A DNA stretch of 64,000 nucleotides from Chiloscyllium plagiosum (Eukaryota), in assembly GCF_004010195.1 (NCBI RefSeq), contig NC_057753.1, forward strand, positions 3,441,514-3,505,513, read 5' to 3'. The notes below the pieces were generated by a model. It did no database searches. It was not told where the DNA came from and saw only the letters and a program-made list of their open reading frames with translations. Positions 1,160-60,870 of the stretch are shown one piece after another; the stretch's first letter is position 1, and every line of letters starts with the position of its first letter. Made by a program: the position numbers and the translations under genes.

Positions 1160-1229
1160 CTGGAAGACCAATATCTGCAAGGACTGGATAATAAATGGCA
1201 AAGACCAAACCTCTTGGTATCTCATGCAT
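1160..1229 (-). CDS. Exon 1 of GPR139-like class A GPCR (gene A); exon 2 lies outside the window to the left
   Basis: 70 nt encoding MHEIPRGLVFAIYYPVLADIGLP+G, ending at a phase-1 donor CCAG|GTAAAA. Same length, phase and IYY..L..IG.P motif as exon 1 of genes B and D. No matching exon 2 seen in 1-1159. Confidence 0.85.
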
Positions 1230-1280
1230 TTCTGACAGATGTTCTGAGCACCGTCCATGAATCATCGAAACATGACTACA

Positions 1281-1327
1281 TTTATACATGGTTGCATATG
1301 CATTTCAGACTTCAGGGAGTTAATTAG
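1281..1327 (-). promoter_or_regulatory. Gene A proximal promoter: TATA box plus homeodomain/EBF-like composite
   Basis: TATAAA at 1286-1281 and CTAATTAACTCCCTGAAG at 1327-1310. Same arrangement upstream of genes B and D. Confidence 0.65.
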
Positions 1328-2244
1328 TTCGACTTGCTTTTTCCATCATGACTTTAATTGCAAGAAGCAGATTAGTACTGTTTCTGATTGTTGCACTTTT
1401 AATTGGAATGGATATTTGGGGCCTCAAATTGATCTAAAGTGACATGCACAGCGATTACATGAGGATCAAGGTATTATTTCGTCATAAAAATCATTGTTAC
1501 CTGAATATTGGCTTCAGAACATATTAGTGGCTTTCTCTGGAAACTTTAATGAGATAAACGAATATTTCAACGAAAGCACAGTCAAGTTCTACCATTATTA
1601 TTATATCCTTTCGATCATGATTCAGGTGCAACATGAGTCCAGTCAAGACTGATGCAGTAAAACATCTGTCTTTCCGGATGGATTTGCAGATGCGTTTAAG
1701 ATGCCTTCACCTTGACTGGTTTCATTGTGCATTATTGTAATTTCACCGCAATTACATTTCGTACAGGGAGATTCAGGTTCAGTACTGTGTGTGTTCATCA
1801 ATGTGTTACGATATGGTTCATCATGTTTAAGTTCAGCACGAACGGTTCCAGTCCACCAACATGAAAATCCATGTGGATTTTAATAGATCAGAGCAGTTAT
1901 ATCCATTTAGGACACCAGTTGATTAAATCTACATTAAGACTTCATATGAACACTTCTGTTTAACGTATTCACGTGAAGTATGATTTACTACAAGTCAGCC
2001 ACTTTCCATTCAGTGTTGCCACATCTATTACAATGTAATTGCATTGGTCCGACACGGGGCCAGCGTTCCACAGATATATTGCGTTGTCAAGATTTTACGC
2101 AGCATTTCTGATTTCAACACACGAAGTCCAGCTCAACACGAATGGTACGAAAATGTACAGGTGAACATTTGTGAGGTTTTAAGGTGCATTTTAACAGATG
2201 GATGAGTAGGCAGGGAACAGTGGATATGGACGACATGAAGGCTT

Positions 2245-4490
2245 ACATTGCAACACGAACCCAAGCCACTGATTATTTAGATGTGCATTGTACATGTCAA
2301 TTATCGAGCTGGTTCACAGCCAGCTCCTAGATTGAACAGGAGCCCTGACATTCCTGTTTATTTGTCAGCTGGGGCTCCCTGAGTGGACCAACTTAACAGC
2401 CCCAATCCTATGACCTGACCGCCTCGTTCCAATCACTACATGAATATCCTCTTGAAATCCTGAGACGTATGACCATTCTGTTTCCTGCAACCCTCCTGAC
2501 ATTTTTGCACCAGGTCCAGTTCCTTCGATTCCGCCTTGAATACTGACGGTCTGAACGAGACTGTCGCCCAACACCTATGCCAGGAATGACTCAGAACAGA
2601 TTCAACTCATTCAGGCAGTAACAACGTTGAGTCTGTAACATCTGTCGTGTCCATCTCTTCCTCAAATGTTTCTACAGTGCTATGCTGAGAACCCATGGAT
2701 TCTGACAGCCTTGTTGGACTTGCGCAGAAACTCGGTATGCTTTGCTCTTTTCCGATTTGCGAGTTCACCGCCTGCATGTCGTCCATATACATCTTCAGAA
2801 CAGTCTCTCCTAGCTCTCCTTGATCTGTTTGGTGGCGAGTGAGGCTGTAGGTTGTTTCTTTGAGCATCCCATCAAAGTTGGGACTGCTCTCTCCACCAGA
2901 CCATGGGATGATGGATGGCATGGAAATGTCTTTCGAATTCAGGAAATGATTGAATATCCTGCTGGTAAACGATTACCCCTGTCTGTGGCAGTAATTCTGA
3001 GTATTCCAAAGCATTGCTCGCAGATTTTCAAATGTTGTCTCCGTGTTTGATGACTGAACTCTTTACAATTCCAAACACTTCGAGTGGACATCCATAATTA
3101 CTGAGCATACAGACTTCATGACCAGACCTGAGTGCACCCGAGTCCAGGGCTTACTGAAAATTCTCGCGCATGTCTGGGAGGTGCTGTCAGTAACCTTTGT
3201 TCCTCTTGAAAATTTGGGCACTGCCCCACTAATGTAGATATTTCTGCAACCAATGCTAGCCACCAATATCATCATTTTAGTAACCTCTTGATAACTCAGT
3301 ATCTGGTGGTGAACTTTACTCGAGACAATTGCTCTTGCTCCCCACAATGATGTGACAACTTTTACGGTGATCTGATAAGGTTCAGGAGAGTTTCAATTCT
3401 GATTGAGATTCCCCCCATCTTCACCAGCTGGTTTAGCTTTGCTAGGATGGGATCATTTTGTGTCCCTAGTCTGATACTCTTCGTGGTCACGAGAACATTG
3501 GCCCGAAAGGTTAAAACCAGAACAGATTCCATTCGTAGCAGCAGCACTAGTGGTTGAGTATCTGCCAGTGTGAGGTGGCTCAGTTCATCTCCATATGTCC
3601 TTAGCCTCCTGGTTGGTGTTCCAATCTGCAATTTTGCTGTATCAGAATAAGAGCCTATTGCAGAAATCGACCTGATGCTACGGGCAGCAAAGCCCTGTCC
3701 TCTATGAGTCGTCCCAGCAGGAGCTGTGTTCCCTTACTATTGCAAAATATACATCCATAAAGGTACTGCTGAAATCTTCTTGCAGCAAAGATGACTGGCA
3801 TACCTTCCTCCTCTATCTGTGTGTATTTTCATTTGGCATCAGCCAAAGTCCGGGAAGCATATGCAATCCGGCTTTCCTCTTCTCTCGGCCACCAGTGAGC
3901 TAATGCAATCCTGATACTGTATGGGGAGGCGTCGCATGTAAGCATCTCACTTCACTTGGGGTGTATAGTGCCGACGCTGGCTGCTTCTTCACTTCCCCGA
4001 AAGTTACGTCCTGTGTCGGAGACCATTTCCAAGGCTGATCGTTGTCAATCGCAGGTGTTAGGTTGCCAGGATGGAGGGCAATTTATATGGATTTTTTTCT
4101 GTAATAATTCACTAATTCAGGAATGGTCCGAAACGTCTCGAGATGTGGAAGTCAGGGCACATGTGATTGCCCTCACTTAATCTTCCAACCTATTGTGTCC
4201 TGATTCTGATGATTCTGTAGTCCAAGTAAGTCACATGTGGTGCATAGAACATGTTTTTTCCTTCGAAGGTGTTCACTTTCTTGAGAAAAACATTTGGGCA
4301 TTTAACCAACTGCAAAATGTGGTTTAGCATTTGTTTGAAATCCCCACAAATGTGACCCGAGATATCAGGCATCAAAATTGGTGTAAACGGTGATGTCCAT
4401 TCTGCAACGTGTAATTGTGTTGTGTTTCCTTCACTTTCCAGCCTCCGCATGTCTGTGTCTGCTTTTGCATTTAAGGCAAATGCCACTGAA
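2245..4490 (-). mobile_element. Degenerate Ty3/Gypsy LTR retrotransposon (pol remnants plus probable 3' LTR about 2245-2440)
   Basis: Minus-strand fragments resemble RT (ICGDFKQ, HVTYLDY), the RNaseH-integrase linker (TQNDPILAKL) and integrase (KPWTRVH). LTR-like start TGTAGTG at 2440. Boundaries approximate. Confidence 0.7.
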
Positions 4491-4504
4491 CAGGCCTGAC
4501 TAAT

Positions 4505-5420
4505 TTAGAACAGAGAACCTAGAACAGTAATGCACAGTATAGGGTCTTTACCCCTCGACGTTGGGCCGACATTTTTTCCCATTCGAAAATCAAACGAACC
4601 CTTCATTTTGCTATCATCTATGTGCCTATCCAAGAATCGCTTACATGTCGCTTGTGTAATCGAATCTACTATCACTATTGACAGTACCATCCACGCACCC
4701 ACCATTCTCTGTGTAAAGAACATACATCTGACATCTCCACTAATCCTTCCTCTAATCGCATTAAAATTACGCACTCTCGCAATAGCCATTTCTGCCTTGG
4801 GAAATAGATCCCTTTTTATGCGCTCTATATATGCCTCGCATAGCCACGTACACCTCTATCAAGTCACCTCTCAGGCTTCTTCGCTTCAATGAGAAAAGCC
4901 ATTGCTCCTTCAACCTTTCTTCATGAAACATGCTCTCCAGTCCAGGCAATATTCTGGCGATTCACCTTTGCACACTCTCTAAAGCTTGCACGGTCTTTCT
5001 ATAATGAGGCGACAAGAACTGAACACTACATTCCAAGTGCAGTCTAAACAGGGCTTTACAGAGCTGCAGCATAACCTCATGGCTCTGAAATTCTATCCCC
5101 TAGCGAATGAAAGCGAACACACCATATTGCATCTTAGCAAATCTATCAAAGTGTTGAGAAGTTTGAAGGATTTATGTATGAAGAGCACAAGATCCCTCTG
5201 TTCCTACACAGTGCCAAACATTCCGCCAGTAACTCTGTAATATGCATTCAAATTCGAACTTCCAAAAATAAATCACTTCACACTTTTCCAGGTTGACCTC
5301 CATCTCCCCTTATCAACCCAACTATGTATCATGTCAATGTCCCGTTGCAACCTACGACAACCCTCCAGACTGTTCACAACTCCACCAAACTTCGTGTCAT
5401 CAGCAAACTTTCTAAACCCG
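4505..5420 (-). mobile_element. CR1 LINE 3' fragment
   Basis: CR1 ORF2 C-terminal motifs (LFSLKRRSLRGDLIEVY; FFTQRMVGAW) and a TAGAAC-type tail repeat at the left end. Confidence 0.85.
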
Positions 5421-6600: not shown

Positions 6601-6619
6601 ACCTGAAAATGAGGTATCA

Positions 6620-8530: not shown

Positions 8531-8539
8531 GCACCGTGT

Positions 8540-16424: not shown

Positions 16425-17335
16425 TCAACACTTCAGAAGTTTAACAAGCAATCTCAGTGGATATTTCAAACAATTCTTTAACTCGTCTCTGAATTTATTC
16501 TGGGTTCCCGCATAAATAAAAGGATTTATACAGGAACTCAGAAACTGAAGCATATACCCGGTTTCCTCCAGGATGAAGGACGACTTGCTATAGTCAGAAA
16601 CTGAGTAATAAGTAACTTTTGCAATTCGGACATAGAGCACGGTTACAAAATATACCGAATAAAGCAGAAGAAAACTACCTGAAATGCAAAAAAGTAAAAT
16701 AATGGACTTTTTCCGTTTCTCCACCTCTGAGTCACTCGGATTCTCTCCATTGCTCTGGGTGCGAAGTCTCCTGCGGGCTCGATTGGCCGCTAAAATATGC
16801 CTGACAGTCAGAGCATTGAGCAGTAAAATCAGAATGAATGGGAGGCAGGGGACGAGAATGGATCGAATCAAATCGTATGCGGCCCAGGCCTGTGAGGTGT
16901 TAGATACTAATTTTGGAACGCAGAACCAGGGAACGCCATTAATTATGTACAGTGGTTCAAATACAAAATAGAAAAATGCATTTTTAAAACAGCTCAGCGT
17001 GCAGACTCCCCCTATAACCCACTTCGCTGTAACTTCTGTACAGTATTTTAGTTTCAGCTTCTGGCAACAAATGGCAACAAATCGATCAAAGGTGAAAGCG
17101 ACCGTTAACCAGGCAGAACTATCTATTACTGAATAAATAAGGACAACGCGGAGACTGCATATCGGTGTGATGAATAAGAAACTGAATGGAAGATAAATGC
17201 CAGCAGTCCGGTTTATAATCACATTAACTATAATGACCAAGAGATCTGCTAACGCCATGGATACCACGTAGGAAATGATACATCCAGAGAGACCACATCG
17301 TCTTCGTTGTAAGATTATGATCACTGCCAAATTTG
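16425..17335 (-). CDS. Exon 2 of GPR139-like class A GPCR (gene B)
   Basis: Acceptor TTCTCTCTGTTACAG|CA; 911 nt open frame covering TM1b-TM7 with MALADL, C3.25 (TPIC), FTFDRFVAIC, WFC and INPFIY. With exon 1 gives 981 nt = 326 aa. Confidence 0.95.
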
Positions 17336-18775
17336 CTGTAACAGAGAGAATGAAGATGGAATAGTGAGAATTATGTCGGAGAGAGCAAGAGCAATGAAAT
17401 CATTAGTCCAAATTTCAATAAAATTATACTATTTTACAGAATTGTTTGAGAAAGTCAGACGTGTGTGGTCAGTTTTTGCATTGAAAAGTACGCTTCATAC
17501 CAGTTCAAGAGTTTCAATTAAAATTGGAACAATAATCTTAATTGAAAGCAAGTTATGTGAGTGACAAGAATCATCAATAATAGACGTAATAACGGAGAGA
17601 AAAATGATGTAAAAACACTTCAGAACATGCACGGGAAAAGATTGGAAGAATACTATGTATGCACTGAGTGGCATAAAAGACAAAACAACAACTAAACACG
17701 TAAAGTCTGTCCAGAGAATTCATTGCATTTTGTTGACTTAAACAATGCCCAAAAGTTATGAACTTTTGTAAAGCAGTTCTCTGTTGAAACAACCTGCAGA
17801 TAATATCAATAAAAACATCCAGAGGCATAGTGAGGTGGATGAAGTGAGGATTTCTTCGGCTTTGCACAGGAAACATTGCTAAAGATGTAACAGTATTTAT
17901 CATTTATGTAGCGGGAAACGTCAATGCTAACCCGAAGAACTGGACATTTGCAAATGCCGAGATCTCATTCGGAGAACATCTCCGACAACACCACAGCCCT
18001 CAATGTTCTAGTTTACTGTAAGGAGAATTGAGCACTTCTGTGGAGTGCTAGATATTATCTTTGTGATGCTCACTCACAGGAGTCTTCCCAATAGCACTAT
18101 AGCACAACACTTATATTGAGATGATAATGGTAAAGGTACAAATTCCATCGTTATAGGTATCTGTTTAAAAATGATTTAAACAAATGTTGTCACTTGACGA
18201 ACAATATATTGTATGTAAATACATTTTACGAAACTATGACGATGAGCTGGAATACATTATTTCATGGAGACAATGTTCAAAACTGAATTGAAAGTTATAC
18301 AGGTTTACGGGGAGAATGTGTGAGAACAGCATTAAATGAATTCCTTATCTGCAGACCGGACACACACAACACTGATCAAATGCCGTCCTCAGCACTGAGC
18401 TATTTCTGAACTCCCATAAAGAGAAGGTACAGCTCAGCTATTAAGGGAACGTACACTTTATTGTGGAAACATATCTTAAAGAAACTCAACTAAGAAGGAA
18501 GATAAATCATATTCGCAAAAGTGAGAACATAGACGATCAATAATGACCATGTAAACAAGGAAATTAATTATTCCATTAATGCAGAGAATATTCTTAATGG
18601 CAGGTTGTAAAAATGCGACTAAAGATAAGAAAACCTCCCTATTAAAAGAAAACAGAGTTCTTTAACTTGTGAATGAAATATCCGCAAAGTGAAAATGGGC
18701 TAGTAGTGATAAACAAAGAGGGGTGATTCAACAAATCTATGAATCGTGTAATAATAAATGAGTACAAATCTTTAC

Positions 18776-18845
18776 CTGGTATCCCGATAGCTGCAAGCAA
18801 ATTATAATAAATGGAAAACAACAGACCTTTTGGTGATATGTGCAT
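18776..18845 (-). CDS. Exon 1 of gene B
   Basis: MHISPKGLLFSIYYNLLAAIGIP+G with donor CCAG|GTAAAG. Phase matches exon 2 (G|CA AAT = A-N). Intron 17336-18775. Confidence 0.9.
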
Positions 18846-18894: not shown

Positions 18895-18929
18895 TTTATA
18901 CATGAGTCAAGCTCAAGGGATTTAATTAG
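18895..18929 (-). promoter_or_regulatory. Gene B proximal promoter: TATA, AP-1-like site, homeodomain/EBF-like composite
   Basis: TATAAA 18900-18895; TGACTCA 18909-18903; CTAATTAAATCCCTTGAG 18929-18912. Confidence 0.7.
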
Positions 18930-19330: not shown

Positions 19331-22300
19331 GCACCCTCGCGTTGTTCATCCGATAGTTTCCAGATCATATGATTTTGGTACTGCTCCGACAGTCTCCTGT
19401 GTTGTGTGTTCTGAAGCATTATTCATTATGATCTTATTGGCCGGAAGAGTAGGTTCCAAGGATTGGATGGCCGACTCCTACTTCCAATTGATGTATTCAT
19501 GTATATGCTCCTCTTCAAGGTATTTACAACGTCTCAGGTGTAAGCCCAGCCATGACATATTTTCATGGGGCTTCAGACTGAAAGAAATGAGCCTTTATTC
19601 TCTGTCTTTCAATGTAACCCCTAATGAGTCTTTGTGAAAGACGTGCTCAGGTTTAAGAAGCAAATCGTGTTCTAAACAGGGTAAGAGATCGAGCTTAATT
19701 TAGTTAAAGGGGGAGCGAAAGAACGATTGATTGATTGATTGATTAATTGTTATATGTATCTTGCTGCAAACTTGACTGGTTGGAGTAAGCAAAGTAGAAG
19801 GAAGGCAGTGGGTAGAATTCAGAAATCTAGGCAGCAAATCATGAGTAGAAACCAGTTGGTCCTACTTTACAGTTCGAGAGCTCGTTCCAGTCCTGACCTC
19901 AATCTTGGTTCAGCATGAATCACAATGCACACGCAGCCACCTTCTTACCCAGATCAGACTTTATACTTTGCACATCAATATACATGCTTTCTACTCAACC
20001 TCCAAGATGTTACGACCTGCCTATGGAGCAAGTTGCATTTGAGCTCTGGTCAAATCTGCTTAGTAGTGGAGACACTACCACTGCACGACAAACGTTTTAC
20101 TGCAGTGTATCCAGCATTGTAAAGAACTGGCAGCAAATTTTAGGGCTTTGATACAGTTTGGCGCCTTAGTTCGAGAAAATGCAATTAACAATATCCACAT
20201 TCAACATGTAAAAATGAGTGGTCACGAGAGCAGCCTAAGAGATTGGCGAATGTAAGGAGAAAAGTTTGAGATAGATTAGTCGATGATATTTCACGCAGGT
20301 CCAGAAAAATGCTTCACATGGGGAGAACAATATAGGAAAAGGATACTTTGCATAAATGGAAAGAAGTTCATCCACATAAAATTCCTGACAGGCATAACTC
20401 CAGTGAATCATTTGATGCTATTGTAAAATGAAACGTGTGAAACGTGTGAAACAAATCATCTATGTCGTGTTTCCCCGTTTGAAATGGTGGTAAGCTCTGC
20501 CACTTCTGAGTCAAAACATTATAGTTTCAAGCGCTATTCTCGGACAGGTGTGTCATGGCAATGCTTGTAGTTGCTTTTCAGTTAGGTTGCTAAACTGAAG
20601 CAAAATCGAAACCCAATGCATATAGAGACTCTGCACCAATTTAATGGAGAGCTGTTGTTCATATTACAATACAATGAACAACATGCGCATGGTTCAAAGA
20701 TTAAGCATTACAACAATGAGCACCTCGAGGAAATGTAGATTCATTTAGTATGTGATGGTTAACTCAACAAACTGCAGCAATACACAGCATAGCGAAGTTT
20801 ATATCATGGCAGGGAATGACAATACTCCCACAGTAAGAACATCCATAACAGCAAGCAAATTAATTTATAGCATGTCACCGCATTGTCAATGCCTGTTACT
20901 GTAACAACACAAATAACGAACAAGAAAAGTTTATTGTGGTGCAGAGTCTCTCACAGTGGCACACTACCCATAACTGTGGCAGTGTCCATATCTCTGGGAC
21001 GGCTGGCTCGGATTCACATTACCCAATGCTCCAGGGGTTTGTACCTCTGAACAGATTTATTCGTTAAATGAACGTGGAGCTTAACTTTCATATGACTTTG
21101 CATGAAAATATATGTACACTGTTCGTATCAATAACAGACCAGAATTACGTTGAAAGCATGAGTCGGTAACAAGCAGTGCAAAAATACCAAATGTAGAGAG
21201 GACGTCGTTCTGGAGTTTGCATGTTAGTTGATCAAAAGGAGAATGATTTATAACTTGAATGTTAACATACTGTTTCTCTCAAGACATTTTAATACCACTA
21301 TGAGAAATATGAAATAGACAAATATAATGAAAGCTCATTATGTTCATGAAGAATAAATGATTAAATGGAGAGTTGAAATGGATAGTTGGAAAAAAGTTTG
21401 ATTTTTGGGGGAGGGACTATATCATATTTGTTAATGGTATAAAGAAAGGTTTGTCTTAGTAAATAGACAAGTGATCTACTTAAATGTGGAAATGACATCA
21501 CTACCACTTAGAAAAATATGACAAAATGGGAGGTATGCAAATCCTTACATAACTAGCAACAGTTACCATAACTATACGATGTTGCAAGAACAGGATAGTA
21601 AATTGCAAACAATAAGCGTTTTGGTGGTGACTGCAGTTCTGGTCAAAGTTCTACACATCTCCTTCATCATGTTCAAAGGTGGTCATATTTACTCTTCATG
21701 TCTTTTTCCATACAGAAAATTAGTTGGTTTTGCCTGTTCATGACACTAATTGAAAGGGTAAAAAATTAACACAAACTTGTGAAATTATGGCTGGTGCTGC
21801 CAGTGTGTTTTATCAAATGGATATTTTGGAACTGCATTTTTCCCAACATTGAAACTCACAGAGACGACAAAAAAGCTAGTCAGGCTTTTCCTTTGTTCAT
21901 CCAAAACAAACAAAAACAACGTTCAATGAAAAATTGGAGATATTTCGTGAAATTCAACTTTGGAACCGCAGAATTATTACTTTTAGTTCCTTGACGCTGA
22001 ATTCAATGATCATTGCACAAGTTACAACTAAGCATGAACATGTTGATTAAATAAGTTGGTAAATTCTAAGTTTAACTGACACGATAAGTGCTTTCACACG
22101 GTCTTCTGTGTTTTCGTTGTGGAGAAATGCAGTTCAGAAATGTTACAATTAGTCCTCAAATGCCATATTTAGCTTAATTTTGGAATAAATTAGTGCAGTC
22201 CAGATTAATTATATATTTTGTGTACGGGTTCTCATGATGCTGGTGGCCTTGATAATGGAAAGGTTCACTCCTGCATGGTTGCACCCAATTCCATTTCAGC

Positions 22301-37490: not shown

Positions 37491-37502
37491 GTAAGCATGT
37501 TT

Positions 37503-38471: not shown

Positions 38472-39377
38472 TTATTGACATTCGAATATTTTAATGAATA
38501 AGTTCAAAGCAAATCTCACTCCATTCTTCAATTCATGTCTAATTTTGCTCTGTGTCATAGCATATATAAATGCGTTAACGCAATAACTGAAACATATATC
38601 TGTTTTTTTTTCAAATCAAACGTGAAATTATGCAAAATGGATCCCGAAGAATAAGTAATATTCACAGCTCTTACACAGAGAATATTTGTAAAACATAACA
38701 GATATAATTGAATGAAACTGCCCCAGATGGCAAAGAGTAAAATAATGGACTTTTCCAGCTTCTTCATCTCTGGGTCACACTGAATCTCTCCATTGTTCTG
38801 AAGGTTGAGTCTCCTATGGGCTGTATTGGCCAAGGCAATATATCTCACGGTCAGCACGTTTAGTTGTAAAATTAGAATGAAAGAGAGACACTGACTTAAA
38901 ATTTAACAGATCCAGTCATATGCAGCCCAAGCAGGTGATGTATGACATTTATCCCTTATGCGACACAGCCAGGGCACATTGTTAATACATACCTCGTTTC
39001 AAATTCAAAATATGTGAAAATGCTTTTCGTACAGCACAAAGTAGGCATTATTCCTATCACCCATGCTGCCACCTTCTTGGTGCAATATTTTACTTTAAGG
39101 TTCTGGCAGGATATAGCCGCAAGTTGATTAAAGGTAAAAGCAACAGTTAACCAGGCGGAGTTGTTAATAATTGCCATTTTTAATGCAGCACGGAAACTAT
39201 ACACTCGTGTGATAGAAAGGAAGTTGGATTGGAAATAACTCCCAGTAATCCTATTTAAAATCACAGCTGTGACCATGACCAAGTGATCTGTCACTGCAAT
39301 TGACACCAAGAAGCTGGTGATGCATCCAAACAGACCACAGGCTCTTCGAGACAGGATTTCAATCATTGCTCGATTAG
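38472..39377 (-). pseudogene. GPR139-like GPCR pseudogene (gene C, exon 2 only)
   Basis: SRRACGLFGCI, SAWLTVAFTF, LKVKYCT, LTVRYIAL and KSIILLFAI in different frames. DRF changed to NQL; acceptor reads TTACAA| instead of AG; frameshifts near 38990 and in TM7. Confidence 0.9.
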
Positions 39378-39606
39378 TTGTAAGTTGTAAATAATGAGTT
39401 TCAATCAGAACATTTGTGTTTCTGATCACCATCAAGTTTCCCATTTAACAGGATTTTTTTTAAAAAGAGAGAAGAATTGAGAAGAAAGTCATAATTGGGA
39501 CATTATTCCTTCCATAAGGAACAATTGATTTTTGAATTAAACATTGACACATAGATTAACCAAATTAAGGATGCAACAAGGAAAAATATTTGGAAATCTT
39601 TTTTTT

Positions 39607-43419: not shown

Positions 43420-44995
43420 AACGTTGAACATAGCACAGTCAAGCACTGAACTGCCCTTTGATCTTCGATGTTTTGCAGACATTTCATTCTACTTTAAGAT
43501 CACACTAACCTACATACCCACATTCTACTATCATCCTTGTGCCTATCCAGGAGTCGTTTAAATGTCTCTAATGTATCAGACTCTATTAACGCAGCTGGCA
43601 GTGCATTCCACTCATCCACCAATCTCTCTGTAAAAAAGCTACCTCTGACATCTACCCTTAACCTTCCACGAATCACCTTAAATTTATGCCCCCTTCTAAT
43701 AATCATTTCCGCACTGGGAAAAGAGTCTCTGGCTATCTATCCTATCTAAGCTTCACATCATCTTACCCACGTCACCTCGTATCTCTCGTTCCTCCAATAA
43801 GAAAAGCCGCCGTTCTCTCAATCTTCCTTTCTACGACATGCTGTCCAGTCCAGACAGCGTTCGGCTTAATATCTCCTGCATCTTTTCTCTAGCTTCCACA
43901 TCACTCCAACAATAAAGTGATCAGGCCTGAACATCATATAGCAAGTGTGGTCTAACTGGGGCTTTACAGAGCCACAGAACAATCTCGCAGTTCTTAAAAT
44001 CAATCCGTCTGCTAATGAAAGCCAACACTTTCTGCCTTATTAACAAATCCATCAACTTGGGTGACAACTTTGAAGGATCAATGGACGTGGACCCCAAATC
44101 CCTCTGTGCCTCCAAACTGCTAAATATCCTGCCGTTAACCCTGTAATCTGCATTCAAATTCGACATTCCAAAATGAATCTCTTTATACTTTTCCAATATT
44201 GAATTCCATTTGCCACTTCTCAGCCCAGCTCTGTATCGTATTAACATCTCATTGCAACCTACATTATCCATAACTCCAGCAAACTCTGTCTCGTCGACAA
44301 ACAAACTAACTTACACTTCCAGTTCTTCATCTAAGTTATTTATAAAAATCAAAAAGAGCCGATGTCCCAGAACAGATCCCTGCGCATCATATCTGGTCAC
44401 CGAGTTCGAGAATGGATAGTTTCCATTTACTACTGCCATCTGTCTTCTATAAGCCAGCCAATTCTGTATTCGGACAGTCAAATCGCCTTGTATCACATGC
44501 CTCCCAAATTTTTGAACGAGCTGACCGAGGGGAAACTAACCGAAAGCCTTGCTAAAATCCATGTACACCACATCCACTGCTCTACCTTCATCAACATGTT
44601 TTGTTACAACTTCAAAGAATTCAGTAAGGCCACTGAGGCATCACATGCCCCTCACAAATCCATGCTCACTATGTGTAATCAAACTATGCATTTCCAAATA
44701 ACCATATCTGTCTTTCAGAATTCTCTCCAATAATTTATGCATGCCTCGTCTGTAATTCTAAGGATTATCCAAATTCCCTTTCTTGAACAAGGACATCTCA
44801 TTTGCCTCCCTCCAATCATCAGGTCCTAGTTTACGGGACAGCGAGGATGCAAAGATCTTCGCCAAAGCGACAGCTGTCTTTACCCTCGCTCCCTGTAGTG
44901 AAAGTGGGTAGATCCCGCCTGACCTCGGGGACTTATCTATGATCATGTTTATCAAAATTTCTAGAGCACCCTCCTTCTTAATATCAACATGTTCA
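43420..44995 (-). mobile_element. CR1 LINE fragment
   Basis: RGHKFKV...FFTERLVDEWNALP; QGSVLG; LFKKGNLDNP. Confidence 0.85.
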
Positions 44996-51737: not shown

Positions 51738-52303
51738 AGAACATAGAACATAGAAGAATACAGCGCAGTACAGGCCCTTCGGCCCTCGATGTTGCGCCGA
51801 TCCAAGCCCACCTAACCTACACTAGCCCACTATCCTCCATATGCCTATCCAATGCCCGCTTAAATGCCCATAATGAGGGAGAGTCCACCACTGCTACTGG
51901 CAGGGCATTCCATGAACTCACGACTCGTTGAGTAAAGAACCTACCCCTAACATCTCTNNNNNNNNNNNNNNNNNNNNNNNNNNNNNNNNNNNNNNNNNNN
52001 NNNNNNNNNNNNNNNNNNNNNNNNNNNNNNNNNNNNNNNNNNNNNNNNNNNNNNNNNNNNNNNNNNNNNNNNNNNNNNNNNNNNNNNNNCCTCTACTAAT
52101 AAAAGCCAGTACGCCATATGCCTTCCTCACTGCACTATTTACCTGGGTGGCAACTTTCAAAGATTTGTGTACATGGACACCAAGATCCCTCTGCTCATCC
52201 ACACTACCAAGTATCCGACGGTTAGCCCAGTACCCCATCTTTTTGTTACTCTTACCAAAGTGAATCACCTCACACTTAGCTACATTGAACTCCATTTGCC
52301 ACC
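51738..52303 (-). mobile_element. Young 5'-truncated CR1 inserted in Gypsy gag
   Basis: WQMEFNVAKCEVIHFG intact; TAGAACA tail repeats; AATTTT target duplication (51732-51737 / 52304-52309). Confidence 0.9.
51958..52089. other. Assembly gap
   Basis: Run of N. Confidence 1.
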
Positions 52304-53787
52304 AATTTTGTTCATCCTCACTCTCTTCTTCACTAAGCTTACCTTCAGCCTTCATCTAGATCCTTTTAAACTAACTTTCGTGTCTCAGTGCCAATTTCCG
52401 AAGTCAAACTCTATCTCTTCCTGCCTTTCCTATCGCTCCTTCTCTCTATTCTCTCTTTCTTTCTTTTGGTCTGTGAAAGCGATTCGTTCGTTTTCTCGTT
52501 CCTGTGCTATAGCATTCCTCTTCTTTTCTTATTGTTCAGCTGAAAACTTTCTCCCCATTTCTTTATCTCCTAACGTGGAACTTTTTTCCTTTTCTTCATC
52601 TTCTACCTCCTGCTGCCTCACTTGAAATTGAAACATTTCTAATTCCGCTGCAGTTGGTCATTTATCTGATAGACTCAAGGACTTAACTAACGGCATTTCA
52701 ATTTCAGCGTTCTGCCTGTCTCTGGTTAAATCCAATTCTAACCCGCTTGCTAAGTCCAAAGATTTCTGTCTTTCGAAACTTCATTGGCAAATTTGTGAAG
52801 CATTTTCAAATCCTAGAACCTCTTTAGCAATGTTTTGAGCCATTTCCAAAAATTCCAATGGTCTTTCAAGCACATTTAAATGTTGAAATATTTCGGTAAT
52901 GGCCACAACAATTTTCGGTGTCATTGCAAATTTCGGTTCCAGCCTGATCGCCAATTCCAGCAGTTTTGTCTAGTTGACATTTTGTAAAACCCCCAAACTC
53001 ACTTCTTCTGCCCCACTCTTAGTGATGAAAAGAGCCATTGCTATCCCAAGCCATGTTTAAACGAACGGAAATCAACATCAAGGACAAAGGACACTAACAC
53101 CTATCACTCGCTGCCTTTCAGTCCAGCAACGCTAATACCAAATTTGAACTCCCGAAAAAGTCCAGGACCAGCCCTCAGTCTGTTTTGGACCAGGACGGAC
53201 CCCCTCAAAACATTTGAAGAAGACGTCCCTGACCATATATTTTCTAATTTTGTTTTCGTAGGTGCATAGTGGATATTCCAGGAGTGATGCAGCTGGCAAA
53301 AACCCCTCAATTTTAAACAAAACAGAATTTAATTACCTAAGTAAACCCAAACAAAAGGGAACAGGATACAAAATAACTTAACCTACCCAAAAAAAAAAAC
53401 GTTTAAACGCTATTCCAAATTCCTGCAACAGTCCCATAAAGTGCCACTCGGCAGATAGGTAAAATCACAGCCAGGTTCTTACAGGAGAGATAGGTGACAG
53501 AGAGGTTGAGCATCGGATTTCCTTTCAATGTAGCTGATTCTTCAGATTTCTCTGTCTAAACTGACCAATCACTCTCAACGTCCAGACTACTAACGTCAAT
53601 TCAAACCAGAGAAAAGCTGAGCTGGTCGAACTGGCCACTTCCCTTTCATTATACAACTGTTTTGTTTTGGACTTAAAAGCTTCGTCAATTATATAAACCC
53701 AGGCATCTCGGAAATGATGGCTTTATGAACCTTCTGAAAAGAAAAGAACAACATAACCTTCTTGAAGGAGCAGCATTACTATGGTAT

Positions 53788-55660: not shown

Positions 55661-58227
55661 ATTTGAAACGTCTATCGACATACCAAATCCGATTGAAACT
55701 AGTGATCTGGATTAACTCGCACTGAACATATTTGTGAAAATGTTGCTCTAAGCTGACAACACCCATTTGCATTCAACTAGAATTGCCATACTGAAAACAA
55801 TTGTACTAAAGTGAATGGACAGTGTCAGAAGAGCATGGAATCATGGTGCCCGTGAGCCGTGATCATATGGATTGACTAATAATCAATGCTGAGAGCTTGC
55901 CAATATTGGCTGCAGTTGCCTTTCGGCCCAGTACATCTCTCAGCAAATATGCAATGTGCCAAGTTGTAGTAGTGCTTAATATCAAAATGGTATCTTCGAA
56001 ATAGATCATTAAAAGCTAAATAGGGGTATCAATAAGCAGTTGCTGAAGAATGAACATGTATACGTGATACTGGACTGTTTTGCATGAAGATGGCCTTGAC
56101 CTGTTTTGCTACGATACTTGGAATCATTTCTGACCACAAAGCACATATGAATGATTGGACTTTGATTAGACTTAACATTCAGGCTGATTTTGTGACTACT
56201 ATCATGGAAATTACTGCAGAGCTCTATTGCAATGGTGATGAGGTCCTCGACTTGTGAGAAGGCATGGCACATGCTTGCTTGACTATATCCAATTAGTTCA
56301 AGCTAAGCATTTTATAAAGCCAATGAGTATTTTTATTTTAATTGTAAATGAAATATTTAAGCTAATAAATTTGTATTGCATTCGAGCACACTAACCTGCT
56401 TGTATTTATTTGATCAAACATTCTTTTCGGGCACTTCACGAAGGCCTGATGTTACTTTGTCATTTGCGATCAGGGTCTGAACAAAACGTTTAAGGAGGAA
56501 GTATTCGGTATCCAGGGCTAGGTTTGGAGTTCTAATGAACTGGTTGAAAGAATTAGGGCACCGCAATTTTGGGATAAGGATTTGGAGGAAATCCCCAAAA
56601 GACTACTTCTCGGGAGTAAAGGACAGTTGCAAGGACAGTCCCTTCCCCAAATGGACCGAAAGAATTGCCCAAATGCGGTGCATTCAGCTGACGAGCGTCG
56701 GCGATGGGCCTCGAACCCAAGTCCCCCAAACATTATGTGTGTCTCCAGATTAACAAGCTGTCGCTTCTCTTTATGACATTACCTCCCCAAACTATCAATG
56801 CGTGGATGCCTCAGTATTCTTGAGGAGGTATTGAATCTTGGAATATTGAAGATTTTTTGAAAAATTACTGCATGAGGACAGTATGTATCGCTCATCCACA
56901 ATTGTCCATAAAGCAGTTGAGAGCCGCTTGACTCTTAGGCCAGACCAGTTCAGGATAGTCATTTCTTTCGCTTAAATGAACAAAATGGATTTTGTTTTAT
57001 CGAACAATTTACAATGGATTCGTAGAAAAACAAGTTGAATTCAAATTACATCATGCATCGTGGATTTCTTGCATTATCTCGAACTTTACCTGGGTCTCTG
57101 GATTACCAGTCCAGTGGCAATAGCACAAGGAAATCGACTTCCCTTATGACATTGTGATTTGGAAACTGGAAGGTGTGAATGAAGTTTTGTTCAAACAGTG
57201 AAGCCGAACAGAGCCTTGTCCATTCTGGCAGTCTGCTGTCTCAATGGGTTAGAGAACTGTGTGAACTTGCTTACGTACATTCCATAAGTGAATGACGACT
57301 GTGTGTGAACGTTCAGCGGGGTGTACATCTTCCTTTTACTCTAACCACGTGGAATCCGCTTACATCATTTGTTACATTGTCAGGACAATGTGAAATATCC
57401 TTGTAAAGCCTTCCTTCATGAGCCTTGTCATTGCTCAGCCCCACACATCTACCACATTTTCTCACTCTGCTGGACTGCGCTAAACTCCGTAACAATATTG
57501 TACTGCGACGATTTTATCAATAGTTTTGATTAGTTACATATTTCACTGTGCGAAACTGATAATTCAGTCTGTTGTTACTTGGTTAAGTGTTGAATTTAAG
57601 TTGAAATGCCAGCTATCTGCCATTGTATGTGAAAGCAAATATAGACGGCTTGAAATATCACTTTTTGTAAATTAATGGTCGGTTTAGAAGACAATTATCA
57701 ACAGCAAACATGAAATGGTATTTCAGGACTGTATGTTAATATGGAATGCTAATCTTCACATTGCTAAACATCTTATTGTTTTCGATTCACTTACCAACTT
57801 GTGTCAGCAGCATGGAAGTCGGACATAATTACATTGACACCAGAATTATCCATCTTTTATTACCAGTAGAGTACGTGGTGATCAAGTGTTGTGGTGTGGT
57901 ATTATTCCACAGCGAATCCTAACGTTCAGTTCCAATGAAGTTTGCCTGATATTAGCGTTTAAATATGAAACTCACTGTTGTGCAACTTGGTTAATTCAGT
58001 TCTCTCCAGGCAAATGAAGAGGTCAGAGAGAGGTCGTGTGCCTGATGGAATGGATTTAGGGCTGCTGATGTATTGCATAATCAGCCAGATTTACCTTGGA
58101 AGGCAGAAATAACTGTGTGCACATTAAGGGACATAGAAAAATGAGATTTTGCAGAAGGCACAAGAAAGGCTGTGCTGAACTCACAAATAATTCGAACTTG
58201 GCGGGCTTTCAGAAGATTTATTTTTCC

Positions 58228-58293
58228 CTGATAATTCATTCTGATGCTACTTGGTTAAGTGTTGAATTTAAGTTGAAATGCCAGCTATCTGCC
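58228..58293. repeat. 66-bp dispersed duplicate of 57556-57621
   Basis: 3 mismatches in 66 nt; a single copy in the gene B block. Confidence 0.9.
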
Positions 58294-58429
58294 TGCTATG
58301 AATTTCTGGCCAAATTAGACAGCCTTATACGGAGAAAGAGGTTGAGCTGAATAACAGTTTGGCGGCACCTAGCGGCGTATGTCAATGAGTATAAACGATT
58401 GGAAGTTTTCAGCTAATGCGCCTGCAGTG

Positions 58430-59340
58430 TCAACACCTTAAAAGTTTTAATAGCAATCTCCACGGATGTTTTAACCCGTTCTTTAACACGTCCCTGAATT
58501 TATTCTGGGTCCCCGCATAAATAAATGGGTTGATGCAGGAACTCAGAAACTGAAGCATATACCCAGTTTCCTCCAGGATAAAGGATGACTTACTATAGTC
58601 AGAAGCTGAGTAATAAGCAACTTTCGCAATTCGGACATAGAGCACAGTTACAAAAAATACCGAATACAGCAGAAGAAAACTGCCTGAAATGCCAAAGAGT
58701 AAGATAATAGATTTTTTCCTTTTCTCCATCTCTGGATCAGTCTGATCCTCTCCATTGCTCAGGATTCGGAGTCTCCTGCGGGCTCGATTGGCCGCTAAAA
58801 TGTGCCTTACTGTCAGAGCATTGAGCAGTAAAATCAGAACGAATGGGAGGCAGGGGGCAAGAATGGAACGAATCAAATCATATGCAGCCCAAGCCTGTGA
58901 GGTACTAAATGCAAATATTGTAACACAGAACCAGGGTACATTATTAATTGTATACAACGGTTCAAATATAAAATATAAAAATGCATTTTTAAAACAACTC
59001 AGCGTGCAGACGCCCCCTATAACCCACTTCGCTGTTAGTTCTGTACAGTATTTTACTTTTAGCTTCTGGCAACAAATGGCCACAAAGCGATCAAAGGTGA
59101 AAGCGACCGTTAACCAGGCAGAAATATCTATTACTGAATAAATAAGGACAACACGGAGACTGCATATTGGTGTGATGAATAAGAAACTAAATGGGAGATA
59201 AATGCCAGCAGTCCGGTTTATAATCACGTTAACAATAATGACCAAGAGATCTGCTAGCGCCATGGATACCACGTAGGAAATGATGCACCCAGAAATACCA
59301 CATCTTCTTCGGTATAAGATTGCGATCACGGCCAAATTTG
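58430..59340 (-). CDS. Exon 2 of GPR139-like class A GPCR (gene D)
   Basis: Acceptor TTCTCTCTGTTATAG|CA; 911 nt open frame with DRF and NPFIY; colinear with gene B without indels. Confidence 0.95.
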
Positions 59341-60715
59341 CTATAACAGAGAGAATGAAGAGTGCATAATAAGAATTATGTCCTGAGGGAGTGGTAGCAA
59401 TGAAGTCATTAGAGCAAATTTCAACAAAATTATTCTTTTTACACAATTCTGAGTGGAAGCCAGACACGTGTGGCTAGTTTTTATTTTGCACTTGGAAACT
59501 ATGCTTCACATCCAGTTCGAGTTTCTATTGAGTTTAGAGCACTCATCTTAACTGAAACCAAGTTATGCCAGTGACAAGAGAAATCAATAATGTAAGTAAT
59601 AAAGGAGAGAAAATGGTTTTGAAAACACGCCAAAATGTACACAGAGAATGACTGGAAGAATAGTATGCATGCACTGAGTGGGTACGTGTTAAATAGCAAC
59701 TGGGCACATGATGCCTGTCCAGAAAACTCATTGAACATTGATGATTGTAAAATAATTATACAAATATTATGAAAATCTGTAAAATAGCCCTCTGTTAAAA
59801 TTGCCTGCAGATAACATAAACAAAAGAATCCTGAGGCATAGGGAGTGGGATGAAAACAGCATTTCTTAGGCTTTGCACAGGAGAAGTTGATTCAAGAGCA
59901 TTTCTTATATATTTAACTGGAAACCTCAATGCTGACGTGAACCACTAGACCTTTACACACGTCAAGTTTTCAATCAGAGAACATCTACAATACCACACTT
60001 TACCGTCAAGAGAAGTGAGCACTTCTGTGCAGTGGTATATATTAACTTTGTGATACTCACTGACTGAAGTCTTTCCCAATAGCACAATAAAACAACACTT
60101 ATATCGAGATGACAGTGACAAAGGCACAAATTATATCATTATAGAGATCTGAAGAGAAGCAATATAAAACAAAAGCACAGCTATGGCTAGGAGCTGCAAT
60201 ATTTGCTGTGACGGAGGTAATGTTCAATATTGACTTGAATATTGTGCAGGTTTACGGGGAGAATAGGTGAGAACAGCATCAACTGAATTGTTTATCCGCA
60301 GACCGGATAAACACAAGACTGTCCAAAGATCTCCTTTAATCACTGAATTCTTTCCGATATTCAGTAAACAGAAGATTAGCACAGCTATTAAGTAAACAGA
60401 AAAAGTTAATTAGGAAACATATCCTAAAGAAACTCAACTAAGAATGAAGGTAAATTAAATTCATAAAAGTGAGAACATAGACGACTAATAATGAAAAAGT
60501 CAACTGGTGAATTTTGTTTCAATTGATTGGAAGATATTCCGAAGACCAGGTTTTAAAAATGCGACCTTAAGATAGGAGAGACCACCTACTAAGGGAAACT
60601 TTAAATTGGAGATGAAATATCCACAGTGTGAAAATGGGCTCTCAGTTATAAACAAAGAAAGGTGATTCAACAAATCTACAATTTATAAAATAATAACTGA
60701 ATGCAATTTTTTTAC

Positions 60716-60785
60716 CTGGTATCCCGATAGCCGCAAGCAAATTATAGTAAATGGAAAACAACAGACCTTTTGGTGATATGTGCAT
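60716..60785 (-). CDS. Exon 1 of gene D
   Basis: Encodes the same 23 aa as gene B exon 1 (2 synonymous differences); donor CCAG|GTAAAA; intron 59341-60715. Confidence 0.9.
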
Positions 60786-60835
60786 TTCTATCAGAAGTTT
60801 TAAGCACATTCAGCGTTATGTTGTATTTTTCCACG

Positions 60836-60870
60836 TTTATAGATGAGTCAGACTCAGGGGATTTAATTAG
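60836..60870 (-). promoter_or_regulatory. Gene D proximal promoter: TATA, AP-1-like site, homeodomain/EBF-like composite
   Basis: TATAAA 60841-60836; TGACTCA 60850-60844; CTAATTAAATCCCCTGAG 60870-60853. Confidence 0.7.

Follow-up and report, generated by a model that had tools for sequence, protein, structure and literature searches.

A very large class-A receptor family of sharks and rays, only remotely related to GPR139 by sequence, with a predicted homeodomain and O/E-like core promoter in many members

GPR139 and GPR142 are class-A orphan receptors with L-Trp and L-Phe as activators, and the GPR139 gene has two exons. The coding regions of odorant receptors (ORs) are intronless, and TAARs were recruited to olfaction from amine receptors of the brain. 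In the available text of the studies concerned, GPR139 is highly conserved across vertebrates and expressed in the habenula (PMC12208981), and its ligand contacts are D2.61, E3.32, a Trp of ECL2, R6.51 and N7.38 (PMC12775434). For mouse OR promoters, the accessible part of PMC3247239 gives O/E and homeodomain sites as the enriched motifs and a predicted TATA site at −60 to −10 in 39% of the promoters. OR enhancers are driven by adjacent Lhx2/Ebf "composite" sites with a fixed spacing (PMC5608512 and PMC7804114, in the portions at hand). In the catshark, according to an excerpt of PMC6368271, the OR, ORA and TAAR families number only 5–8 genes each.

The window analyzed here, a stretch of 64 kb from Chiloscyllium plagiosum, covers only a minor part of a tandem array that extends over several megabases (contig C44, about 1.5–13 Mb), and further arrays of the same receptor family sit on other contigs. 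The four co-oriented paralogs listed by an earlier sequence-only reading were all found, on the minus strand, as class-A GPCR genes: genes A and B, which are intact, the edge gene P, and one pseudogene. The copy it had called partial is, however, only cut by the window edge and is not truncated in the genome, because exon 2 of gene P lies 425–1306 nt left of the window (L001:8694-9575) with 294 open codons. LINE-type reverse-transcriptase remnants are found between the receptor genes.

The genes share a two-exon plan in which the first coding exon measures 70 nt and the intron is in phase 1, and all three non-pseudogene genes of the window have exon 1. A short leader and the ATG open exon 1, whose 23 codons cover most of TM1, and exon 2 supplies the remainder of a 326-aa receptor. 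In gene A (all features on the minus strand), the coding part of exon 1 (18776..18845) encodes MHISPKGLLFSIYYNLLAAIGIP plus G, the intron (17336..18775; 1,440 nt, phase 1) is bounded by GT...AG, and exon 2 (16425..17335) completes a split Ala codon with 2 nt and continues over 302 codons to the stop, coding from the end of TM1 through the C-terminus. Gene B, also on the minus strand, is built in the same way, with the coding part of exon 1 at 60716..60785 (MHISPKGLLFSIYYNLLAAIGIP plus G), a GT...AG intron at 59341..60715 (1,375 nt, phase 1) and exon 2 at 58430..59340 (likewise 2 nt for the Ala codon, then 302 codons and stop). With 23 codons, the split Ala codon and 302 codons, each gene encodes 326 aa. 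The models, with GT donors and Yn-AG acceptors, bear out the compact two-exon structure and the very short N-termini proposed from the letters, as TM1 is reached after about 8 residues and the first complete codon of exon 2 encodes N1.50.

Exon 1 of gene P (1160..1229, minus strand) encodes MHEIPRGLVFAIYYPVLADIGLP and the first base of the split codon, and is followed by a GT donor. Its last coding base, 1160, and a position at the TAATTA of gene B, 60870, were the bounds of the region singled out by the sequence-only reading. An exon-1 relic on the minus strand (21583..21624; PKRLLFAIYYPVLA) has neither ATG nor donor, and was probably left behind by a copy since lost. The pseudogene (38478..39402, minus strand) is an exon-2 homolog with about 50% identity to gene B that carries two frameshifts and an in-frame stop, and reads NQL in place of DRF and NAxxY in place of NPxxY. 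An accompanying exon 1 was not found, and the expected place holds a run of N (40852–41037).

The same plan was followed in 40 further loci of the genome, which were chosen from the best-scoring matches to gene B, a choice that inflates the shares of intact genes and of motifs. Exon 1 with a GT donor lies upstream of exon 2 in 28 of the 40, one more has an exon 1 with a mutated donor, and in 11 no exon 1 was found within 6 kb of exon 2. The split codon is directly preceded by a Yn-AG acceptor in all 43 loci, and the exon-2 frame is open over at least 294 codons in 39 of them. Across family members, the phase-1 intron spans 0.45–5 kb.

Exon 2 of genes A and B matches the Pfam model PF00001 (7tm_1) with 79.5 bits (E=3.6e-22) and 79.4 bits (E=3.9e-22), respectively, against a gathering cut-off of 30.5. 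The class A landmarks are present (N25 as N1.50, D54 as D2.50, DRF at 3.49–3.51, W129 as W4.50, P189 as P5.50, and NPFIY), together with the cysteine pair that joins C3.25 to ECL2 (C83 and C162), and these residues are invariant or nearly so in the family alignments. The CWxP motif, which is not obligatory for class A, is absent from TM6, where the sequence SFLLLYSVFF places a Tyr at the position of W6.48 and has no Pro at 6.50. Charged residues at R3.28, D3.37, D5.39, R5.42 and E7.36 are invariant in the family. Membership of the OR family proper was rejected, as 7tm_1 was the only Pfam model to match at E<=0.01 and the OR-specific model did not; no OR appears among the listed relatives or their names.

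The receptor family is very large, and its copies in the genome number well over a thousand. A 29-nt TM3/DRF signature, searched with up to 3 mismatches, has 1,416 matches in the 3.56-Gb genome and none with the reversed control; the case of only a few copies genome-wide, which the sequence-only reading had named as speaking against its proposal, does not apply. Searched at the protein level, the genome yielded 8,094 first-look candidates, of which 117 were scored, all with E < 1e-114. In the public protein set there are 2,259 relatives at E<=1e-3, the best 120 of which are all elasmobranch, and the best 120 of the 381 matches to a skate query belong to sharks and rays. Within the searches made, this class-A orphan GPCR family is confined to sharks and rays. 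No paper on it was found in the literature searched.

The family evolves under purifying selection. The median pairwise dN/dS is 0.19 over 817 pairs at a dS of about 1.2, and genes A and B differ by a dN of 0.059 and a dS of 0.375. Averaged by region, dN/dS runs from 0.10 (TM7) to 0.30 (TM4), with the exception of 0.46 over the nine TM1 codons of exon 2; ECL2 has 0.29, and no regional average exceeds 1. Exon 2 differs between genes A and B at 35 of 302 residues. The divergence had been described as focused on ECL2, which indeed has the most differences (8 of 27), but ICL3 (7 of 26) and the C-tail (6 of 24) come close. In the family alignment, the highest column entropies are found in upper TM3, TM4, ECL2, ECL3 and the C-tail.

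Upstream of the coding region, many members share a predicted core promoter composed of a homeodomain site, an O/E-like site and a TATA box. In gene B (60836..60869, minus strand) it comprises TAATTA at 60864–60869 (−84 relative to the ATG), TCCCCTGAG at 60853–60861 (−76) and TATAAA at 60836–60841 (−56), and in gene A (18895..18928, minus strand) TAATTA at 18923–18928 (−83), TCCCTTGAG at 18912–18920 (−75) and TATAAA at 18895–18900 (−55). The module of gene P (1281..1326, minus strand) has TAATTA at 1321–1326 (−97), the O/E-like TCCCTGAAG at 1310–1318 (−89) and TATAAA at 1281–1286 (−57). The O/E (EBF)-like site is mostly TCCCNNGAG, presumably one base off the palindromic EBF consensus; it adjoins TAATTA and lies about 20 bp upstream of the TATA box. 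The order TAATTA (about −84), TCCCNNGAG (about −77) and TATAAA (about −56) is held across paralogs with about 60–70% protein identity, and in the family promoters examined the three elements keep to −83 to −86, −75 to −79 and −55 to −57. The juxtaposed pattern TAAT..YCCCNNGRG has exactly two matches on both strands of the 64 kb, the promoters of A and B, and recurs, equally far from the ATG, in distant paralogs at other places of the genome, in agreement with the shared homeodomain and EBF-like module noticed at the outset.

We further counted the motifs between −110 and −50 before the ATG in 32 promoters, with 7,042 60-nt windows of the same loci as background. The O/E-like TCCCNNGRG is present in 19 promoters and 17 background windows, a homeodomain site in 22 and 488, and the juxtaposed pair in 16 and none; among 23 non-redundant promoters counted by hand, the numbers are 14 (O/E), 13 (homeodomain) and 9 (pair). 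Information content peaks at TAATTA, CTCCC, GGAG and TATAAA and falls almost to background in the flanks and the intron. The strict composite pattern was matched at 13 sites genome-wide (control 0), and of these no fewer than six lie at family promoters already identified. Two further patterns gave 47 matches (control 9), with 6 of the 32 known promoters recovered, and 99 matches (control 3), with 15 of the 32; of the 99, about 57 look on reading like family promoters and about 27 like an unrelated repeat. Scaling both patterns leads to roughly 100–250 genes, not 1,400, and the conserved promoter may be present only in part of the family.

Like vertebrate ORs, the shark genes are compact and form very large tandem arrays with pseudogenes, and in both TM6 lacks CWxP; their coding sequence is split within TM1, whereas ORs have it in one piece. 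Mouse ORs have in common with the shark family the homeodomain, O/E-like and TATA elements of the core promoter, as far as the available text of PMC3247239 describes them, and the adjacency and constant spacing of the first two elements resemble the Lhx2/Ebf composite in the portions at hand of PMC5608512 and PMC7804114. In the mouse, however, the juxtaposed composite typically marks distant enhancers and is under-represented at promoters (PMC5608512, same portion), while in the shark family it lies inside the promoter itself in half of the genes counted (16 of 32). TAARs provide a precedent for a non-olfactory class-A lineage that was expanded and turned olfactory in some vertebrates (PMC8890504 and PMC8032801, as excerpted). 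The two belong to different clades, and the copy number is far larger in the shark family. TAARs keep the aminergic D3.32, while in the shark family position 3.32 is variable and hydrophobic and D3.37, D5.39 and R5.42 are invariant.

A large lineage-specific tandem expansion with pseudogenes, the birth-and-death pattern of chemosensory GPCR multigene families, is found here, and a chemosensory role of some kind appears probable for the family. Homeodomain and O/E sites near the start site, the mark of olfactory-type promoters, are present at the level of sequence, and we lean slightly towards a family that would be olfactory; it is the promoter motifs and the family size, and those alone, that suggest a tissue of expression. 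In olfactory sensory neurons, factors of the Lhx2 and Ebf types would act on the promoter, and this would lead, we propose, to the expression of one or few members per neuron. The receptors would detect water-borne small molecules in a pocket built on R3.28, D3.37, D5.39, R5.42 and E7.36, with specificity tuned by variation in upper TM3 (3.29, 3.32, 3.34, 3.35), ECL2, 5.43/5.46 and ECL3. With more than 1,000 copies and promoters of the mouse OR type, the family may be the missing bulk of shark odor receptors, and would then be the main odorant-receptor repertoire of elasmobranchs, which are poor in canonical OR, TAAR and ORA genes.

We tentatively put forward, as a suggestion held with less than even confidence, a seventh vertebrate chemoreceptor family: the principal odorant repertoire of sharks and rays, with more than 1,000 class-A receptors whose own promoters carry Lhx2/Ebf composites. 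If this holds, the receptors derive from an orphan gene of which amphibians and sturgeon still have one copy; the choice of a single receptor by homeodomain and EBF factors either predates the split of cartilaginous and bony vertebrates or was recruited independently; and the invariant R3.28, D3.37, D5.39, R5.42 and E7.36 would anchor common charged ligands, such as amino acids, amines, bile salts or nucleotides. The elasmobranch olfactory epithelium is reportedly devoid of ciliated neurons and of G-olf staining, in which case class-A receptors there would need another transduction route. A catshark "brain & olfactory epithelium" library has no GPCR among its 50 most specific genes in the available text of PMC11979771, a result that weighs little against olfaction because single receptors of a large family are low in bulk samples.

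It is unlikely, if less so than the explanations that follow, that the receptors are sensory or chemosensory without being olfactory, with expression in taste or solitary chemosensory cells, in trigeminal or dorsal-root-type neurons, where mammalian Mrgpr genes are expressed, or in cells associated with the ampullae. Size, tandem arrays with pseudogenes and purifying selection would suit any sensory repertoire, and EBF and LIM-homeodomain factors are active in other neurons and in B cells too. However, we know of no non-olfactory GPCR family that approaches 1,000 copies, and homeodomain, O/E and TATA elements near the start constitute the promoter signature of odorant receptors in the accessible part of PMC3247239.

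An elasmobranch expansion of immune or leukocyte chemoattractant-type receptors, whose EBF-like site would be read by EBF1 in the B lineage, is improbable. EBF1 is a B-cell factor, some members were automatically named GPR15-like, C5a-receptor-like or CC-chemokine-receptor-like, and GPR15, CCR1, CCR3 and CCR5 are among the solved-structure matches of the family profile; such names nevertheless reflect weak best matches of about 30–45 bits. To our knowledge, a TAATTA homeodomain site fused to an O/E site is not a lymphoid module, and we are not aware of immune GPCRs that form a family of hundreds to thousands of genes.

Most members are named "probable GPR139" by NCBI, and they might be taken for functional relatives of GPR139 and GPR142, sensing aromatic amino acids or peptides in brain or endocrine tissue in many copies, which we consider very improbable. 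The family shares with GPR139/GPR142 the same broad branch of rhodopsin-like receptors and has a TM1 motif (YYxxLxxxGxPAN) similar to that of GPR139, which is also the best solved-structure match of the nearest bony-vertebrate relatives (70 and 53 bits). Against human GPR139, however, gene B scores 26.4 bits (E=4e-5) and ranks it below the CCK-A receptor, and the family profile places it second at 48 bits, after the TRH receptor (53 bits), a similarity no better than that to TRH, CCK-A or PrRP receptors. None of the five GPR139 contacts given in the excerpted PMC12775434 is kept in a profile alignment whose TM6 part is of low confidence (D2.61 to N, E3.32 to I in a variable column, the ECL2 Trp to a gap, R6.51 to F, N7.38 to Y). 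Position 3.25 is Asp in GPR139 and the disulfide Cys of the TM3–ECL2 pair in the shark family, which also lacks W6.48 and P6.50, and the conserved, brain (habenula) gene described in the available text of PMC12208981 contrasts with more than 1,400 family copies. GPR139 identity was rejected on the weak bit scores, the lost contacts and the 1,416 signature copies. Judged by sequence similarity, the family is only remotely related to GPR139, and the name comes from automatic annotation.

In a tree built with GPR139-named relatives only, all 54 elasmobranch rows group into a single clade (SH-aLRT 94), and the amphibians and sturgeon make up its sister clade (joint branch 100). The amphibian and sturgeon "probable GPR139" proteins (P0240, P0280, P0282, P0296) are about 31–33% identical to the shark family and have in common with it AFTFDRxVxxCC..LK..YCT and DPEMxxRRxSI. 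In contrast to the elasmobranch expansion, this gene occurs once per species listed, with 66–74% identity among frogs, salamanders and caecilians, and massive duplication of such a gene, still single-copy in amphibians and sturgeon, gave rise to the family. The sequence-only reading, which had seen a lineage-expanded family and not GPR139 orthologs, is supported on both counts; its interpretation as a whole is partly supported.

That the bulk of the family is functionless DNA amplified by segmental duplication or repeats, with upstream motifs merely inherited, might be read from the 1,416 copies set beside some 100–250 recognizable promoters, and from the pseudogenes, exon-1 relic and LINE-type remnants of the window, but is likewise highly improbable given a dN/dS of about 0.2 at a dS of about 1.2 across 817 pairs, open exon-2 frames in 39 of 43 sampled loci, and promoter motifs that are kept while their surroundings and the intron have decayed to near background.

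Three minus-strand receptor copies were found in the window from a list of stop-to-stop open reading frames and a tblastn comparison of the window with its two long frames: gene A (16425–17399), a frame-shifted copy (38478–39402) and gene B (58430–59473). Both long frames match the Pfam domain 7tm_1 at 79 bits (cut-off 30.5), and neither contains a Met upstream of TM1. The coding exon 1 of gene B, located at 60716–60785 on the minus strand, encodes MHISPKGLLFSIYYNLLAAIGIP plus one base and is followed by GTAAA. The acceptor, TTATAG, lies immediately before position 59340, and the join of the two exons reads GCA (Ala) and then NLAVIAIL..., which gives the same N-terminus as that annotated for the whale-shark relative P0001 (MHLSPKGLLFSIYYNFLAAIGIPANL...). 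Among named relatives, a whale-shark protein is closest to gene B (83%). A blastn search with exon 1 of B and its flanks located the corresponding exons of gene A (18776–18845) and of the edge gene P (1160–1229), both on the minus strand. An exon-1 relic on the same strand, 2.8 kb upstream of exon 1 of gene A (21583–21658, narrowed by a peptide search to 21583–21624; PKRLLFAIYYPVLA), has neither an ATG nor a donor and is probably what remains of a copy that once lay between A and the pseudogene and was deleted.

The co-oriented paralogs described in the sequence-only reading, two intact and one a pseudogene, were recovered by the frame list, tblastn and the exon-1 search. The gene listed there as partial does have its exon 1 in the window, but it is not truncated in the genome. 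Its exon 2 lies in the adjoining 10 kb, 425–1306 nt past the left window edge, with 64% identity to B and 294 open codons, which brings the locus to three apparently intact genes plus a pseudogene. The latter carries two frameshifts, an in-frame stop and the replacements of DRF by NQL and of NP by NA. A run of 186 Ns (40852–41037) occupies the expected place of its exon 1 and promoter; a second run, of 132 Ns, is found at 51958–52089.

The gene model was examined across the 3.56 Gb assembly, in which the window corresponds to contig C44, positions 3441514–3505513, using 40 further loci drawn from the best matches of a genome protein search with gene B. In 28 of the 40 loci there is an exon 1 with the pattern MH..P.G..F.IYY....A.G.P, ending in G|GT and placed 0.45–5.2 kb upstream of exon 2. 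One further locus has the exon with GA as donor, and in the other 11 the search out to 6 kb from exon 2 turned up no exon 1. All 43 loci (the 40 plus A, B and P) show a pyrimidine tract and AG directly before the two bases that finish the split codon ahead of Asn1.50. The exon-2 frame has at least 294 open codons in 39 of the 43, the remainder consisting of two frames of 286 and 292 codons, one with a stop at codon 75 and one that runs into Ns. In this two-exon arrangement TM1 is mostly encoded by exon 1, with only about eight residues before it; the compact genes with very short N-termini proposed for the window are family-wide. An in-frame stretch before the acceptor of B (YYALFILSVI) had been considered as a decayed duplicate of exon 1 at the 3' end of the intron; the idea was dropped because in-frame sequence upstream of the acceptor is simply the polypyrimidine tract in the 43 loci. 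Decay also occurs outside the window: locus L031 (contig C8, 40.96 Mb) has the GA donor and an exon 2 short by 16 codons, and L033 (C8, 65.15 Mb) retains exon 1 and the promoter position intact, yet its exon 2 is the one interrupted at codon 75. Loci L004, L032, L039 and L021 lie on contigs C27 and C37.

The family is far larger than the window showed, in keeping with the lineage-specific expansion that had been proposed. The genome protein search returned 8,094 first-look candidates, and the 117 that were scored all had E <1e-114; they lie mostly between 1.5 and 13 Mb of C44, with others on C8, C10, C12, C27, C30, C37, C39, C48, C49 and small contigs. When the TM3/DRF region was searched as a 29-nt consensus with as many as three mismatches tolerated, 1,416 matches were obtained in the genome (673 forward, 743 reverse), as compared with none for the reversed control, and the matches include arrays on C7, C8 and C17 that were unscored in the protein search. 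A public protein collection contains 2,259 relatives at E ≤1e-3, the best 120 of which are all from sharks or rays. Most of these 120 are named probable GPR139, and others carry the automatic names GPR15-like, capa-receptor-like, sex-peptide-receptor-like, FMRFamide-receptor-like and TRH-receptor-like, a spread so wide that none of the names is meaningful. With a skate member as query 381 matches were obtained. The best 120 of the 381 are from sharks and batoids, with no chimaera among them, which does not prove that chimaeras lack the family. A library clustered at 50% identity contains 573 matching clusters at E ≤1e-3, of which 112 reach E ≤1e-30. A protein atlas returned only the family's own clusters and clusters of expanded invertebrate GPCRs, both of which are taken as leads only.

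The kinship to GPR139 that gave the genes their label is loose. Among solved structures, gene B matches the CCK-A receptor best (32 bits), with GPR139 at 26 bits. A profile of 28 members scores 53 bits against the TRH receptor, 48 against GPR139, 46 against the PrRP receptor and 42 against GPR15; the match to GPR139 is no better than that to the TRH receptor. The closest proteins outside the cartilaginous fishes, from coelacanth (33%), salamanders, a teleost and amphioxus (31% each), are all named GPR139. For the coelacanth and salamander proteins GPR139 is the best match among solved structures, at only 70 and 53 bits, and on these comparisons neither of the two, like the shark family itself, would qualify as a GPR139 ortholog. 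The gene of the salamander protein occurs once per listed amphibian species, with 66–74% identity among frogs, salamanders and caecilians; it has a sturgeon relative at 46%, and the next matches are members of the shark family at 32–33%. In a tree of 62 rows (quick search, SH-aLRT support only, amphioxus root, built without true GPR139 and GPR142), all 54 elasmobranch rows group in a single clade (94) that is sister to the clade of amphibians and sturgeon (joint branch 100), and the coelacanth and teleost proteins fall outside this grouping. Within the set of genes from the present genome, orthologs of other species (whale shark, cloudy catshark, horn shark, sawshark and sevengill shark) are nested at varied depths, indicating that much of the expansion is old and that duplication has continued since. 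The ligand contacts of GPR139 include D84(2x61), E108(3x32), W166 in ECL2, R244(6x51) and N271(7x38) (PMC12775434). In the profile alignment the family has, at these positions, Asn, a variable hydrophobic column, a gap, Phe and Tyr, and GPR139 has an Asp where the family carries the disulfide Cys3.25. Judged from the alignment, there would be no basis for transferring the Trp/Phe pharmacology of GPR139 to the shark family.

Selection has maintained the coding sequences. Exon 2 of A and B differs at 35 of 302 residues (dN 0.059, dS 0.375, ratio 0.16), and over 817 pairs the median dN/dS is 0.19 (interquartile range 0.16–0.22) at a median dS of 1.17. This median rules out the high ratio that had been guessed from conserved third codon positions. 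The 13 sister pairs examined give an overall ratio of 0.21, with 0.30 for TM4, 0.29 for both ECL2 and ECL1, and 0.10 for TM7, and the only region that reaches 0.46 comprises the nine TM1 codons of exon 2. ECL2, on which divergence had been thought to focus, does hold the most changes between A and B of any region (8 of 27, six of them consecutive just after the ECL2 Cys); the counts for ICL3 and the C-tail, however, are nearly as high. Column entropy across the family is highest in the C-tail, ECL3, TM4, ECL2 and ICL3, and also at 3.29, 3.32, 3.34 and 3.35 in upper TM3. N1.50, D2.50, DRF, W4.50, P5.50 and NPFIY are kept family-wide, the CWxP motif is missing from the family alignments, and invariant or near-invariant charged residues (R3.28, D3.37, D5.39, R5.42 and E7.36; positions numbered by us from landmark residues) are located toward the extracellular half. 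In the segment encoding AWLTVAFTFDRFVAICC (59016–59159 in gene B), the source of the 29-mer with 1,416 matches, third codon positions show about the same conservation as the first two in paralogs that share no more than 60–70% of their protein residues, which may reflect gene conversion or a constraint at the DNA or RNA level.

The homeodomain and EBF-like promoter module that the sequence-only reading saw in the window is present and more general. The 130 nt before the ATG of 32 genes contain (C)TAATTA, one to three bases, (C)TCCCNNGAG and CTGAC-like bases, with TATAAAT about 20 nt after the TCCCNNGAG block and CTGATAGAAATG at the start codon; the EBF consensus is TCCCNNGGGA. Motifs were counted at −110 to −50 and, on both strands, in 7,042 background windows of 60 nt from the same loci. 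The EBF-type (O/E-like) site TCCCNNGRG was found in 19 of the 32 promoters and in 17 background windows, the homeodomain site in 22 promoters and 488 windows, and the juxtaposed pair in 16 promoters and no window. Each has a fixed place, with the homeodomain site at −83 to −86, the O/E site at −75 to −79 and TATAA at −55 to −57. When nine close relatives were left out (gene A and L022–L027, which form the B-like clade, and L031 and L033, close relatives of L029), the 23 non-redundant promoters, read by eye, retained 14 O/E-like sites, 13 homeodomain sites and nine juxtaposed pairs. Their MAFFT consensus is ATCTAATTAnCTCCCnGGAGnCTGnCATCAnGTATAAAT, with information content highest at the three motifs; the mean is 0.81 bits at −110 to −40, 0.52 at −300 to −200 and 0.54 in the first 100 nt of the intron. 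Because dS between the promoter-bearing genes is about 1.2, the sharing of motifs reflects constraint and not recent ancestry.

Within the 64 kb the juxtaposed motif occurs only in the promoters of A and B, and gene P has the variant TCCCTGAAG, placed 11–12 nt farther from the TATA box. The generality of the promoter is based on the first 43 loci and on pattern counts over the genome. With the strictest composite 13 matches were obtained (control 0), and six or more of them fall at family promoters already known. Of two looser patterns, one recovers 6 of the 32 known promoters, with 47 genome matches (control 9), and the other recovers 15, with 99 matches (control 3). Of these 99, about 57 read as family promoters; about 27 are chance matches to an unrelated repeat, CCCCTGGGTCCCTCTTTTCTATATAACTACC...TTACCAAAATGCA, as at C8:2038600–2038684. 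By scaling, roughly 100–250 genes have this promoter architecture, far below the 1,416 signature copies, and the remaining copies may be pseudogenes, fragments or subfamilies with other 5' ends.

In the mouse, O/E and homeodomain sites are enriched in the promoters of OR genes, 39% of which have a predicted TATA at −60 to −10 (PMC3247239). In OR enhancers Lhx2 and Ebf bind adjacent sites with stereotyped spacing, and the insertion of two bases between the sites weakens recognition by a synthetic Lhx2–Ebf fusion built for the composite, which is richer in enhancers than in OR promoters (PMC5608512). The class I J element requires the same composite (PMC7804114). The motif set of the shark family is thus like that of mouse OR genes, with the difference that the juxtaposed pair sits inside the shark promoter itself.

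Sharks are famed for their keen smell. Genome surveys nevertheless report few OR, TAAR and ORA genes, along with a V2R set of modest size (PMC6368271), the whale-shark genome paper describes GPCRs as scarce in cartilaginous fishes (PMC8455134), and six vertebrate chemoreceptor families were still counted in February 2026 (PMC13113109). A catshark sensory paper makes no mention of GPR139, and there the 50 most specific genes of the brain and olfactory epithelium library include no GPCR (PMC11979771); a 2025 review of GPR139 makes none of sharks (PMC12208981). No published description of the shark family was found in the literature searched outside subscription journals. The predicted proteins are already in databases and the genes themselves are not new; what appears to be new is the recognition of one huge, selectively maintained shark and ray family with olfactory-type promoters, presently masked by a misleading automatic name. 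We consider it likely that the family serves a chemical sense, and slightly more likely than not that this sense is olfaction. A family of more than 1,000 copies, kept by selection, found in sharks as well as rays and equipped with olfactory-type promoters, would give a concrete and directly testable answer to the receptor gap and would be an independent case for the regulation of very large receptor repertoires. Should its expression lie in other tissues, the family would nonetheless be the largest vertebrate GPCR expansion known to us outside the canonical chemoreceptors.

Three sequencing runs (X1–X3) were taken as DNA because contig depth over the intron is about equal to that over the exons. 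A depth spike of 52,000–117,000 at 59016–59159, from TM3 to ICL2 of gene B, is attributed to words common to many paralogs; it was not taken as copy number, and the genome pattern count served as the check. Between the receptor genes, a fragment of the Pfam reverse transcriptase domain RVT_1 at 13289–13654 (plus strand) scores 27.6 bits, slightly below the cut-off of 29.6, and similar-looking open frames at 43921–44310 and 52090–52355 (both minus) have no Pfam match; all three are predicted to be LINE-type remnants. ARAGORN found no tRNA genes in the whole window. The summed contig depth at 57000–57143 is 3,300–5,000 in the three DNA runs, as compared with about 10–20 nearby, and the loose ends of this segment are tRNA-like; a high-copy repeat of the SINE type is therefore suspected immediately downstream of gene B.
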